DNA from: Eledone cirrhosa
Lineage: Eukaryota
Assembly (NCBI GenBank): GCA_964016885.1
Contig: OZ024743.1
Span: forward strand, 315,270,001-315,334,000
Length of the DNA stretch: 64,000 bases
Direction: 5' to 3'
Below, in pieces: positions 156 to 61,940 of this stretch. The notes under the pieces were generated by a model, which searched no databases, was not told the origin of the DNA, and saw only the letters and a program-made list of their open reading frames with translations. The translations under genes and the position numbers were made by a program. Within the stretch, counting starts at the first letter, position 1. Every line of letters starts with the position of its first letter.

Positions 156-346
156 AACGAAGGAGGTGTGGTAAGGAACCAGATGGACCATAACGCACCA
201 GAGTTTTCAATACTTAGGTTAGTAGAGTGGGTAATAGAAAAAAGAGTAACCCCGTCGGCAGAGCTCAAGACGTTTCGACAGCTATTTCTGTCCAGAAATA
301 CGCGTTGAAACGGCTTGAGCTCTGCCGTCGGGGTTCAACTTTTTCA
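156..346. mobile_element. Asymmetric inverted-repeat element (family B) in (TA)n; probable PLE terminal-repeat fold-back or MITE
   Basis: cccgtcggcagagctcaagacgtttcgacagctatttctg pairs with cagaaatacgcgttgaaacggcttgagctctgccgtcggg. The left arm has about 80 nt extra. Homologous to 3137-3260 and 61633-61940. Confidence 0.75.
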
Positions 347-984
347 TATATATATATATATATATATGGGGGGGGGGGTTATATACAGCGAAAGAGAGAG
401 GTGGTGACAGCAAGTGAAGAAAAGATTGCAGATTTATAGATATGTGTATATGAATAATTTAATAAAGAAATAGAAAATTATTGAGATATCGAGTGACGGG
501 AGAAAATGTTGAAACTTAAGAAAATGAGGGTTGATTGAGATGGAAAGAAATATGAAGAGAAAACTGACGGGGAGCGAGAAAAGGGGGGAATAGCAAGAGA
601 GAAGGATGAGTCAAGAATAGGGACAAGGAAGAGAAGAGCGAAGCTGAAGTGGATGATAGTTCAATTATGAGAAAAGATAACGAATGTTCTAATGAAGCAA
701 TGCCCATGAGATAAATACAGATAAGACATGGTTAGAAAACAGGTGTAGTCAATCAAGGGAATTCTTACAAACATATATACATACATACGCGCACGCACAA
801 AGGCATGTATGTGTGTATGTATGATTTTATTCACTTTATTCACCTATATATTTACACACACGCACACGCACACCTATACACACGTTCTCACACACATACA
901 GCGAGACAGGGTGATAGAGAAATCTAGATATATACATAGATAATTAGATAGACATGTCCACACGAAGATAGACAGATACATAGC

Positions 985-1058
985 TAGATAGATAGATAGA
1001 TAGATAGATAGATAGATAGATAGATAGATAGATAGATAGATAGATATATAGATAGATA
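985..1058. repeat. (GATA)n microsatellite
   Basis: Direct tandem repeat. Confidence 0.95.
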
Positions 1059-1219
1059 GTCGTTAGTACATGTATGAATACCGACACACGCAGACGTGCA
1101 TACACACATACAAACACATACAGCTATATTATAGACGACATTTCTTGTGGATTTACCCCGGTTTATACAATAATTTCTTGAATAATTTTGTTACATCTTC
1201 GTCCTTCTAAGTGGTTCAC

Positions 1220-1785
1220 ACACACATATGTGCATACATACACACACACACACGCACACATATGTGCATACAGACACACACATATGTGCATACATACACA
1301 CACACACACGCACGCATATGTGCATACAGACACACCCACACACACACACCTATGTGCATACAGACACACACACACACACACATATGTGCATACAGACACA
1401 CACACACACACATATGTGCATACATACACACACACACACATATGTGCATACAGACACACACAATCATATGTGCATGCATACACATACACACACATATGTG
1501 CATACATACATACGCATATGTGCATACAGACACAACACACACTCATATGTGCATACAGACACAAACACTCATATGTGCATACATACACACACACACACAT
1601 ATGTGCACACAGACACAAACACTCATATGTGCATACACCCACACACATATGTGCATACAGACACAAACACTCATATGTGCATACAGACACACACACACAC
1701 ATATGTGCATACATACACAAACACTCATATATGCATACAGACACACACACACACACACACATATGTGCATACAGACACAAACACA
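1220..1785. repeat. Minisatellite with CATATGTGCATA core and variable (CA)n spacer
   Basis: About 20 units of catatgtgcata-cagaca-(ca)n, roughly 22-32 bp each. Source of the His/Thr and Cys/Val ORFs. Confidence 0.9.
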
Positions 1786-2104
1786 TACATGAATAACCAC
1801 ATACACTCGCACACGTATACACTAGTTCACTTACACCCATTCTACGATTGATAACACGCAAACAACACACAAACACACTACTTATGCGTCTTACGCATAC
1901 ACACATACATACACAAAGAGCTAAATAGACACACCAATACTGACAAAGGCAGACTTGGAATTAAACCACGCACCTCTATTATATACACACACACGTATAG
2001 CAAAACATATTTACTCCTGTCCATTTTACCTCTCCTCGCGAGCAGCTCCAGCCATTATTTTTATCTTCCAAGCTCTAACTATACTAACCTCAGTCTTGTT
2101 TCTT

Positions 2105-59164: not shown

Positions 59165-59547
59165 TTTCTTTATTAGCCACAGGGGCACAAAAGAAGGGGA
59201 CAAATACAAAGGGGGAAGTTTACATACAATAAAAACGTGTAAAATGTTATCACAAATGGAATTTAAAAAGTTAGTCGATTTTCCCCAATAGAGGGAGACA
59301 GTTTATATGGGTAACACATACCCCCGAAAAAAATGTGCAACCCTCATCTCCAGGAGTACAAAGAGTTTGTACTCCTTTCCTCTCCTCCTTCTTTTCCTCA
59401 ACCTACAGGCTGATATAGAGAGAAGGCCCATTCACTCGGGCCATTCTCGCCACTTTCACCCACCTTTCATAAAACTTGCTGGGGTACAGCACCTCTCTCT
59501 CCATCCTGATTCTTCTTCCAAAGTGGTATTTGAAAAAAAGAATCAGT
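59165..59547 (-). mobile_element. Short Tx1 3' fragment in (GATA)n, nearly identical to 38458-38840
   Basis: Near-identical sequence. GATA repeats on both sides. Confidence 0.9.
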
Positions 59548-59641
59548 AGATAGATAGATAGATAGATAGGTATGTATATATGCGTGTATATATATATATA
59601 TATATATATATATATATATATATATATATATATATATATAT

Positions 59642-59950
59642 ACAAAGATCGGAATTAAGAGTATTCCGCAGTTCCCCGTAATAATAATAATAGTATTAGC
59701 TCAAAGAAGAATAGAGAATTTTCTTCTGAGCTCAAATGCAAATATATTACACAAAGAGAAGTGTGTTACACAGTGAGATGTGTGTAAAGAATTATTACAA
59801 GTGAGTTTTACCGTTACTGTATAGAGAACAATATCTACAGGTTTAGCAAGTTTTTTCTATTTAATTGCTAAACCTGTAGATTTTGTTCTCTATACAGTAA
59901 CGGTAAAACCCACTTGTAATAATTCTTTACACACATCTCACTGTGTAATA
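59642..59950. mobile_element. Asymmetric hairpin element (family F; ~83-bp arms 59766-59848 and 59865-59948, ~120-nt one-sided extension) in (TA)n
   Basis: ttacacagtgagatgtg...tctacaggtttagcaa pairs with ttgctaaacctgtaga...cacatctcactgtgtaa. Confidence 0.8.
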
Positions 59951-61632
59951 TATTTATATATATATATATATATATATATACTAGGGTGGACTGAATGGTT
60001 CATCGGATTACCAAGATGCTCTCGTTCCATGACTTTAAACCTAGCTGTTAGTATACAACAATGTCAGATTTGAATTCCCCACCACCATTAACACTACACA
60101 TCGAGGACTTAGCAGCACCCACAACCACAAACCCTTCGACCAACTCTTTCCTCTACACAACTCATATTCATCTCTAACCTTATTCTCTGCAATAACAGTT
60201 AGAATTAAACATAGAGTTACCACCTTGTGATATAACTACAATAGATTAATTATATCATATATAGTAATTGATATTTGGTACTTAGTATGTAGAGACATTC
60301 AATGTAATATATGATAATAATTTATATATGCATTTATAATTATATAATTAAATACTTAAATTAATAACATGTATTTAACACAACATAATAATAATAAAGT
60401 ATATATACATTTATAATTAAATATAAAATGTAATAGCATTGAATATTAGGGATTAATTTTCAAAACAATAATGTATATTATTACACATATGACATATCTT
60501 TTTTGACATATTAACAGCTATACAATTCTTCATAACATATACCTTATCCAGTAATGAATAGATAACAATCTAAAGAGACCTTTAATGTATGATAGTAAAA
60601 TACACTGTATTTAAAATCAGGTATAAATATACAGCGTTGTATAATAGAGATTCAATGGTATCACATTATAATATGTATTAGAAGAAAGAATTTTAATAAC
60701 TGAATTGAACTTAATTAGGTAGTTACCTCCCTTACGCATTAGCTCCCCTTATTCACTTCCGGAAATTAACGATTGGAAAATTTACCGGTTGATCAAAATA
60801 GTCTATGAATATGAATACATTAAGACTAATTTACAATCCATTGCTCTAACTAACTTAAAACATTCAATATAAACATTAACTAAAATGTAATTCAACATAT
60901 GTCATGGAAAAGTCTGCAAAAACTGTATATTTCTCAACACACACAAATTGGAACACTATCAGCTTACAGCATCCATCTTAAATTCTAATACATTAACATA
61001 TTTGCTTAAAGTGAAGTATTTATTCATCTATATATGCATTAAAGCTTTGCTTTTCTCCTTCTCATGTATATGACTAACGCAGTTGCACTCTCCACACGCC
61101 TGCATATGAATTGTTAATGTACTCTTCCTTTCTCAAAACTACTTTCTCAATGCATCTTTAATGATTGGACTATTCTCTTGTTCTATCTGTTGCATATATT
61201 CCACTCCGTGCTTTTGATTTTAATTTGAATTTGAACTTGAATGTTTGTACAATTATTGTACAATTCTCGTAAAATATATGTCACATCCATTCCACCCTGT
61301 AAATACGAAACTGTTGCTCACAACATCAATTTATATGTATCTATATTATTGTTCAGTTGAATAGGAGGTAAATTATATGTGCAAACATTGATAATGCTCC
61401 GATGACGACAAACGAGAGTTTTGAAGAAACGATTGTCAGCTATTAAATGATTTGAACGCAACTTTGATAGTTGTATTATTTATTTATTTTCTTGCTCTGT
61501 AAAACAACTGATGTTCATACATTGAGCCATTTCTCTTATTGGTAATAAGGTAATAAGAAATTACTGACCTTCGTGTTTGTAGTTGTTTATACTATATACA
61601 TAACTATAAATAGTATTATTATTATATATATA

Positions 61633-61940
61633 TAGGAGAAAGTATGACCCCGACTGCAGAGCTCAAGCCGTTTCGACAGCTATTTCTGGACTAAAGCGTC
61701 CGAGTGCACCAGGATGTCGTTGGTACTTTCATACTCCGTTATTTTGCTACGGAGTTGTTGTAGGAATCGGTTGTGTCTGGGTTTCAATTTAATACCTTTA
61801 GGCCAGAAATAGCCGTAGAAACGGCTTGATGTCTGAAGTCGGGGGTCATACTTTCTCCTATTACCCACTCTACTACCCTAAGTATTGAGTACTCTGGTGC
61901 CTTATGGTCCATCTGGTTCCTTACCACATTTCCTCCGTTA
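61633..61940. mobile_element. Family B asymmetric inverted-repeat element in (TA)n
   Basis: Short arm 61633-61690, long arm 61803-61860 and ~80-nt tail to 61940. Confidence 0.78.

Follow-up and report, generated by a model that had tools for sequence, protein, structure and literature searches.

The window, the whole 64,000-nt stretch of DNA analysed here, contains short insertions of families A, B, E and F (Table 1). All seven elements named by an earlier sequence-only reading (A1-A3, B1, B2, E and F) are embedded in (TA)n and carry an extension on one side only. The layout and coordinates given by that reading hold for all seven, and its tail estimates of about 57, 80, 40 and 120 nt correspond to measured lengths of 56 nt in A (all three full tails), 77 nt in B (three of three; 80 nt including a shared TAT), about 38 nt in E, and 98 nt in F, or 124 nt counting a 19-nt duplication. 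Its proposal that short arms stop at a common point is likewise borne out, as the tail-less ends coincide at a single site, within a 2-3 nt TA-like microhomology, in 5/5 A arms (the three named ones plus those ending at 24807 and about 3016) and 2/2 B arms. E and F are each present once in the window. A4L, A4S and B3 lack an inverted partner, so the inverted-pair layout is not obligatory.

Table 1. Insertions and associated features in the window
Feature	Position	Strand	Remarks
A1 inverted tail-less arm	18572..19435	-	GIY-YIG C-terminus, 3' UTR, hammerhead core at 18765
A1 GIY-YIG endonuclease frame	19457..19834	+	Pfam PF01541; 5'-truncated, CCHH residues, starts inside CX2-5CxxC linker
A1 forward arm	19460..20324	+	
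Minimal type I hammerhead, family A (putative)	20122..20164	+	core 20126, extra base before helix II; cut after 20160 predicted by analogy to other copies
A1 tail	20325..20380	+	56 nt, then (TA)n
A2 tail-less inverted arm	33014..33135	-	different or older template than partner arm
A2 forward arm	33136..33456	+	hammerhead core 33207; 56-nt tail 33401-33456
A3	38264..38307	.	~28 nt inverted from tail-less end plus final 16 nt of tail, CAA microhomology joint
A4L, solo tailed copy	23721..24032	-	TA on both sides; absent from earlier reading
A4S, tail-less copy	24060..24807	+	older subfamily, intact linker C-X4-C-X2-C; absent from earlier reading
A5, degenerate A-like end	2880..3018	+	ends at tail-less site, then imperfect TA; absent from earlier reading
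B1 tailed arm	156-291	-	whole B1 156..346
B1 tail-less arm	294-346		loop of 1-2 nt between arms
B2 tail-less inverted arm	61634-61695		whole B2 61634..61938
B2 filler	61696-61800		~100 nt, low-copy, non-B
B2 forward arm	from 61801	+	77-nt tail 61862-61938
B3, solo tailed copy	3137..3260	+	in TA; absent from earlier reading
E	55430..57686	.	two arms of ~700 nt, spacer ~470 nt
E tail	57649-57686		~38 nt
Later insertion in E	57266..57576	+	forward arm only; 311 nt, ends in (GAT)n, 9-nt target duplication
F	59643..59950	-	arms ~100 nt, 15-nt loop
F extension	59643-59740		multi-copy

The association with TA repeats extends beyond the named elements. Across 11 copies, 17 of 22 ends lie no more than 5 nt from a perfect TA tract of at least 8 nt (12 of 14 for the named elements alone). 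For comparison, 6.4% of positions lie that close to such a tract, as do 2 of the 40 alignment ends examined in a SINE-like control family. Four of the five remaining ends sit beside imperfect TA runs or 6-7 nt off, and the fifth is a degenerate 5' end. The outer ends are mirror images, as symmetric terminal inverted repeats of a MITE would be, in none of the seven named elements, and the window holds no direct tandem array in which every unit has a complete hammerhead, the arrangement that characterizes retrozymes.

Family A is the one that retains coding sequence. The A1 frame scored 25.6 bits against the GIY-YIG profile PF01541 (cut-off 22.6) and is 61% identical to an Octopus bimaculoides protein. 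Its C-terminal GIY-YIG domain has the CCHH residues and follows a CX2-5CxxC linker, read as C-X4-C-X2-C in A4S, an arrangement that passages of PMC8557442 describe for the Neptune and Nematis clades. Among 150 relatives of family A the linker motif was found in 62 of 70 scorable proteins; the relatives reach about 1,050 aa, YVDD is present in all four of the long ones that were inspected, with DKG in addition in one of them, and one of nine long ones gave a weak match to Pfam RVT_1. The window copies are truncated before the reverse transcriptase (RT); the O. bimaculoides relative continues further upstream.

The family A arms contain five hammerheads, four with an intact core; shuffles at the same stringency gave a mean of 0.2 and a maximum of 4. 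A scan that does not allow an extra base before helix II misses family A, and the relaxed scan that recovers it also returned four unrelated weak matches without helix I. The best 150 of 238 Rfam matches in the window include no hammerhead, only microsatellite-driven microRNA matches below gathering scores. As judged by its sequence, the family A motif is a putative minimal type I ribozyme near the 3' end, with the architecture reported in the accessible part of PMC4209133. Coding sequence and hammerhead together make family A most likely a truncated endonuclease-bearing Penelope-like element, and its copies combine 5' truncation, an inverted copy and a one-sided tail. The initial description of several hammerhead and GIY-YIG families has to be narrowed: both features occur in A only, B has the 3' half of a putative hammerhead, and E and F have neither.

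Individual A copies differ in how their arms meet. In A1 the arms agree at 856 of 859 aligned bases, have private variants in common, and turn around a 4-nt loop (about 19456-19459) that lies some 860 nt from the end; the fold is adjoined by a tandem duplication of 20 nt (TRF row 19411-19452). The inverted arm of A2 matches its own forward arm with 110 matches, 8 mismatches and 3 gaps, while that forward arm differs from A4L by a single mismatch and a single gap, indicating that the two arms came from different templates (Fisher p=0.011); they join at a 5-nt microhomology, CCACA. A3, which had been read as a palindrome at 38263-38306, consists of two pieces that do not overlap and hence form no hairpin. 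A4S and A4L, which are 83% identical, point towards each other with 24 nt of TA repeat between them. The terminal bases of A5 match A1 at 22 of 25 positions.

The A4L/A4S pair raises the question of whether inverted pairs are composites, that is, independent insertions of the same family in one TA tract that were later fused by deletion. The low identity of these facing copies, the unequal age of the A2 arms and the several unrelated inserts within TA tracts of this window all speak for such an origin, and A2 and the A4L/A4S pair could each be two separate insertions. As a general account we consider it improbable, since it leaves unexplained that every named pair combines a single tailed arm with a single tail-less one, that the A1 arms are 99.7% identical, and that direct junctions occur in many B contigs.

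In raw reads from another study, 4138 and 3907 family B reads (two runs) pass from the tail-less end into (TA)n and 3529 and 3773 from the tail end; these numbers derive from reduced-representation libraries and do not count loci. Four contigs of a second organism also run from the tail-less end into (TA)n, and a minor third end lies about 10 nt inside the tail (45 contigs in X1). Read depth declines away from the tail end, and the family shows two recurrent 3' termini together with 5' truncation. In X1 contigs the junctions cluster, linking 61674-61696 to 61803, and fall where helix II of the hammerhead is predicted. The fold point had been described as variable; the listed B junctions, limited by ascertainment, are confined to a zone of about 25 nt and do not vary freely.

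The putative B hammerhead has GAAA, helix III and the GUC cut triplet of the 3' half, and in a loose-end consensus helix II finds a partner of 7 bp, but the catalytic 5' half (CUGANGA) was not seen in B. The family had no tblastn match to Penelope-type proteins, and a pattern scan of metagenomes gave 0 matches. Two candidate observations were set aside. Joints between opposite strands with hundreds of reads, such as 61641 to 61853, were not accepted as evidence of fold-back: the B2 forward arm is locally divergent at 61830-61841, and most likely the reads are therefore distributed over both arms. A reading frame within the B2 filler that resembles a GIY-YIG C-terminus was likewise discarded, as it has no tblastn match and the filler is low-copy, non-B sequence. 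From layout, reads and half hammerhead we infer that family B is Penelope-like, and it may be a retrozyme-like unit.

The arms of E are identical in 647 of 700 columns. We found no ORF or hammerhead core in E or F, and neither matched any of 154 Penelope-type proteins by tblastn; as Naiads have no canonical hammerhead and long 3' UTRs are non-coding, this lack is compatible with a Penelope-like origin. The depth of F drops from the tail region inward, from 241 to 25 reads per bin in X10. In X1, a depth step near 59741 (25,246 at that position, against a mean of 54,128 in its bin and 18,021 in the following one) is consistent with a second end, but the short arm is represented by 1-2 raw reads and positions 59941-59988 were skipped. 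That E and F are Penelope-like insertions is a guess.

E and F, and perhaps B, might instead be DNA elements of the MITE, foldback or Helentron type that use TA as target site, the extension being subterminal. Helentron-type ends form hairpins, and the F extension is predicted to fold into a stable one (z = -3.69); the missing ORF and hammerhead of E and F fit as well. Several observations make this very unlikely: terminal inverted repeats are absent and the outermost ends unmirrored in all named elements, B occurs as a solo 5'-truncated arm with depth falling from the tail end, F shows the same inward decrease, and the E tail agrees in length with the 30-40 nt Penelope tail. The possibility that the palindromes are fold-back artefacts of sequencing or assembly can practically be dismissed. 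No single read record covers the whole tested stretch and each listed B junction is crossed by 1-4 raw reads per run, but the arms diverge by 7-20% in B, E, F and A2, the 311-nt insertion with its target duplication is confined to one E arm, and the raw reads of the other study include thousands for each B terminus. The lopsided hairpin inserts in TA repeats are real, and most likely the cut-down tail ends of Penelope-like elements. TA-targeted retroposition with two defined ends, as first proposed, is supported for A and, by layout, reads and half hammerhead, for B; E and F are not tied to any master.

Our preferred reading, to which we assign a probability of about 0.6, is that these are 5'-truncated Penelope-like insertions in which both (TA)n strands prime at two fixed sites near the RNA 3' end and the truncated copies are fused in head-to-head order. 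In this scheme both (TA)n strands would be nicked by a GIY-YIG endonuclease that has a CX2-5CxxC linker; the target preference is observed here, and the nicking is modelled on passages of PMC11167929. One 3' end would then prime at the distal start site and give the tailed arm, and the other would prime 38-124 nt upstream at a TA-like word and give the tail-less arm, which would account for the two fixed ends seen in A and B. Early-stopping cDNAs would be linked through 3-5 nt of microhomology, through filler DNA or where a short site is self-complementary, as the observed junctions suggest. Fixation of a single cDNA would yield a solo copy with either end, such as A4L, A4S and B3. Points that weigh against this reading include the minor third end of B, the unseen catalytic half of its hammerhead, the failure to link B, E or F to a master, and the weak RVT_1 match among the long relatives of A.

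A self-primed fold-back, in which cDNA started from the tail end folds and is copied back and the endonuclease resolves the product at an internal TA-like word, would also leave a tail-less second arm and would still be Penelope-like. Its two elements have been proposed before, self-priming in PMC3846280 and endonuclease-mediated resolution in PMC8557442 (in the accessible passages of both). A TA-like word is present at every tail-less end, the A1 arms are near-identical with private changes in common, and the B junctions in X1 crowd together at predicted helix II. Two independent cDNAs would rarely stop so close to each other, so the tight loops of A1 (4 nt), B1 (1-2 nt) and F (15 nt), all at most 15 nt, favour self-priming in three of the seven named copies. 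The fold-back mode advanced by the sequence-only reading fits these three and fails for A2, A3 and B2. Folding offers no template for the inverted piece of A3 unless a later deletion is invoked, and it cannot yield A2, with its different templates, or the solo tail-less A4S and A5; moreover, passages of PMC11167929 place RT starts at both tail borders. Because A3 lacks overlap, A2 has mixed templates, B2 has foreign filler and solo copies exist with either end, fold-back of one cDNA is not general here. We regard it as unlikely, though well short of negligible, as the overall explanation, and within the two-site priming reading some tight-loop copies may come from self-priming. A stricter version, in which several octopus Penelope-like families rely on obligately paired two-site twin priming on both (TA)n strands, with family-specific spacing of 38-124 nt and sometimes two RNAs, is put forward tentatively.

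Much of this pattern has precedent. An inverted copy with a one-sided tail, two RT starts and a (TA)n bias are already published, and the families described here are further members. Endonuclease-positive Penelope-like elements are described with an inverted 5'-truncated copy and a one-sided tail in passages of PMC3846280 and PMC8557442, and File S1 of the latter lists a (TA)n preference for Naiad_Obim, Naiad_Ovul and Hydra-1_Obim. Like the insertions in the accessible parts of PMC3846280, PMC8557442 and PMC8969392, the window copies show 5' truncation, an adjacent head-to-head inverted copy and a tail on one end, along with inverted-junction palindromes, captured spacer DNA and target duplications masked by microsatellites. 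They differ in tail length (56 nt in A, 77 nt in B and 98-124 nt in F against the published 30-40 nt) and are too short to include a direct pseudo-LTR or RT.

The closest parallel is the Poseidon element PAc of Anolis, for which passages of PMC11167929 report two RT start sites that delimit the tail in vitro, cleavage and extension of both strands at ATT, a predicted dimer, an AT-rich target and a hammerhead upstream of the ends. PAc belongs to the Penelope/Poseidon clade and prefers an ATT motif, whereas family A has a Neptune/Nematis-type linker and lies in (TA)n, and how two cDNAs come together as an inverted pair is not reconstructed in those passages. Non-LTR retrozymes (bioRxiv 10.64898/2026.07.22.740005 and PMC7229834, in part) are similarly short non-coding hammerhead units, related to Penelope pseudo-LTRs and often monomers; they are defined by direct tandem arrays, and the window copies are inverted pairs or solo ends. 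In L1 twin priming, microhomology connects an inverted segment with a forward 3' segment that it does not overlap. A3 resembles such a product, except that the second priming site is variable in L1 and fixed here.

Neither tblastn, the metagenome pattern scan (B) nor comparison with published Octopus consensus sequences linked B, E or F to a master copy with RT and endonuclease. By eye, the 3' ends of four such consensus sequences in the accessible part of PMC8557442 gave no match to B, E or F; a search of its supplement for five motifs from the window found none of them, although line breaks and divergence can mask matches. A literature search that left most subscription papers and Repbase outside its reach returned no paper on twin priming in Penelope-like elements, and its passages contained no Penelope tail longer than 40 nt. 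O. vulgaris has 31 recently active Penelope-like families (PMC13282606), and the insertion layout is not treated in the accessible text of that study or of PMC12602865.

What remains of interest is that the tails are longer and that both ends are used about equally. It is easy to misfile hairpin stubs of TA tracts as MITEs or unknown repeats, and a one-sided tail marks them as retroposed. How Penelope-like elements build inverted repeats and choose microsatellites is named as open in passages of PMC8557442. The copies described here discriminate between models, setting non-overlapping arms and mixed templates against tight loops, though the window alone is not decisive. If paired two-site priming is true, family B, whose read counts are near-equal at both ends and whose junctions crowd at helix II, would offer natural data in very high copy number for deciding how inverted pseudo-LTRs form.

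In this microsatellite-rich animal DNA (window GC 36.5%), seven elements of families A, B, E and F consist of (TA)n, an inverted tail-less arm, a forward arm with a one-sided tail or extension, and (TA)n again. The positions and one-sided extensions proposed by the sequence-only reading were borne out for all seven elements it named, and further A and B copies are listed in the table. Tails measured 56 nt in 3/3 full A tails, 77 nt in 3/3 B tails and ~38 nt in E, and the F extension is 98 or 124 nt depending on the reading of a 19-nt duplication. The fixed short-arm end likewise held: tail-less termini coincide in 5/5 A and 2/2 B arms, invariably at a TA-like word common to the flanking tract. 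A perfect TA tract lay ≤5 nt from 17 of the 22 element ends, compared with a background of 6.4% of window positions and with 2/40 for a SINE-like control family, whose ends are those of BLAST alignments, part of them from fragments. The one-sided-tail layout is real, far over chance. As anticipated, the elements look MITE-like but fail the MITE test, with mirror-image outer ends in 0/7 named elements. Of 90 TA-bounded segments, a crude test for mirrored ends picked out 5: one simple repeat, the inner part of A1, and A2, B1 and B2. E and F escape it, their boundaries being displaced by TA runs that are internal or imperfect; the majority of TA-bounded window segments are not this kind of element.

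Elements, repeats and coding remnants by window position
Feature	Position	Strand	Remark
A1	18572-20380		named A element
A2	33012-33456		named A element
A3	38264-38307		named A element
A4L	23721-24032		further A copy
A4S	24060-24807		further A copy
A5	2880-3018		further A copy
B1	156-346		named B element
B2	61633-61940		named B element
B3	3137-3260		further B copy
E	55430-57686		named element
F	59642-59950		named element
Segment 3' of B2	61954-62051		98 nt, immediately adjacent, TA-bounded; single copy in window
AT-rich element 1	33519-33701	-	80% alike to element 2
AT-rich element 2	48232-48425	-	
AT-rich element 3	25180-25361	-	
Permuted-core family	38045-38148	-	TA-flanked
Permuted-core family	62541-62683	+	TA-flanked
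Palindrome	13308-14051		99% perfect; 369-nt arms, 6-nt centre; no TA flanks
Old imperfect palindrome	63342-63445		75%
Old imperfect palindrome	16778-17429		70%; SINE-like pieces in opposite orientation
Duplication	38305-38840, 58995-59547		554 nt, 91.5%
Degraded non-LTR retrotransposon	5997-9354	-	RVT_1 match 7076-7651
Degraded non-LTR retrotransposon	12244-16445	+	RVT_1 match 15129-15623
Degraded non-LTR retrotransposon	38696-39955	-	weak zf-RVT 38696-39241
Possible old coding remnant	28977-29090	+	weak tblastn match (E=0.004) to four Penelope-type proteins

Fold-back had been proposed as the general mode of insertion, and the tight loops of A1 (4 nt, between arms identical at 856/859 positions), B1 and F fit self-priming. 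However, A3 joins ~28 nt of the tail-less end, in inverted orientation, through CAA to the final 16 nt of the tail, leaving arms without overlap. In A2 the inverted arm differs from the forward partner at 11 sites in ~120 nt and that partner from A4L at 2 (contrast p=0.011). B2 carries filler between its arms, and A4L, A4S and B3 are solo copies, each with one or other end. These copies require that each end can serve as a priming site in its own right, and we favor two-site priming with head-to-head joining (probability roughly 0.6). Self-primed fold-back with endonuclease resolution, which accounts for the tight loops but not for separately usable ends, is rather unlikely; both routes may operate. 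Separate insertions into one TA tract can also mimic the layout, as A4L and A4S show. Two-end priming agrees with a Penelope-like protein that, in excerpts of PMC11167929, cuts and extends both strands at AT-rich DNA and begins reverse transcription at two sites bounding the tail.

Two raw RAD-seq runs from another study and two sets of contigs, together 4 of the 12 runs listed, were compared with positions 59640-61960, which span B2 and F. Family B is highly repeated, with raw depth of 9,000-12,000 on the tail and mainly <100 (a few hundred at maximum) in DNA neighbouring B2. Thousands of reads run on into (TA)n: 4138 and 3907 in the two raw runs do so beyond the tail-less end, 3529 and 3773 beyond the tail end. 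Both B ends thus recur at many loci, in similar numbers of reads rather than of loci. A minor third end lies ~10 nt inside the tail (45 contigs in run X1 and 2 in run X4). Contigs link the inverted arm at 61674-61696 straight to 61803, with 1-6 letters between; some other B loci therefore hold tight hairpins folding within one narrow zone, among listed junctions that leave out folds further upstream, each crossed by just 1-4 raw reads per run. The ~100-nt B2 spacer (61696-61800) is filler, since it is low-copy and matches a separate X4 contig. F is moderately repeated and its extension belongs to the repeat. Depth changes stepwise near 59741, as a second end would produce, in a comparison that omits the TA run at F's short end and 1184 rows of loose ends.

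In the A1 forward arm, Pfam recognizes a coding GIY-YIG domain (score over the cut-off) with CCHH residues, and the older copy A4S keeps C-X4-C-X2-C just upstream of it; in excerpts of PMC8557442, a CX2-5CxxC linker marks the Neptune and Nematis clades and is tied to microsatellite bias. Among longer protein relatives of family A, the nearest belongs to Octopus bimaculoides (61% identity), which makes an octopus the likely host. With a profile search, 3363 relatives were retrieved, and lengths in the top 150 run up to 1394 aa; among these 150 the linker motif occurs in 62 of 70 scorable, while YVDD is present in 4/4 long relatives checked and a weak Pfam RT signal in 1/9. Five A arms carry a predicted type I hammerhead of the minimal kind, in which one additional base precedes helix II (shuffled-sequence control: mean 0.2, maximum 4); it matches the minimal hammerheads of PMC4209133. 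Judged from its sequence, family A is a Neptune/Nematis-type element, and the suspicion of Penelope-like origin was correct.

Family B copies in the window contain GAAA, helix III and a GUC triplet, with CUGANGA absent from every one. The consensus of loose ends at 61695 provides the predicted helix II with a pairing partner of 7 bp, and the sequence suggests a B hammerhead with long helix II whose 5' core would lie just beyond view. No hammerhead core motif was found in E or F; tblastn with 154 proteins matched none of B, E or F, and compared by eye they show no likeness to the 3' ends published for Naiad and Hydra families of Octopus. The description of all four as HHR/GIY-YIG families is consequently shown for A (1/4). 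Family B is likely a Penelope-like or retrozyme-like end; this assignment does not extend to E and F.

Elsewhere in the window, three short AT-rich elements have CTGATGA...GAAA hammerhead-like cores with long helix II; two are TA-bounded and none has an inverted arm. In the permuted-core family GAAA lies 5' of CTGAYGA, an order seen by eye at published Octopus Naiad consensus 3' ends as well. The near-perfect palindrome folds at a SINE-like copy end and contains a degraded LINE segment twice; an inverted duplication and an assembly fold-back are the two alternatives. The 554-nt duplication covers TA and AGAT tracts and a LINE 3' fragment, and suggests an element following (AGAT)n tracts.

In the literature searched, mostly outside subscription papers and Repbase, no tail >40 nt and no explicit description of twin priming came up. 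Excerpts of PMC3846280, PMC8557442 and PMC8969392 give as the typical Penelope structure a 5'-truncated copy in inverted orientation, tailed at one end only, which the window elements share, and those of PMC8557442 list (TA)n preference for Octopus Naiad and Hydra families. The architecture is already known, and the mechanism is in large part published.
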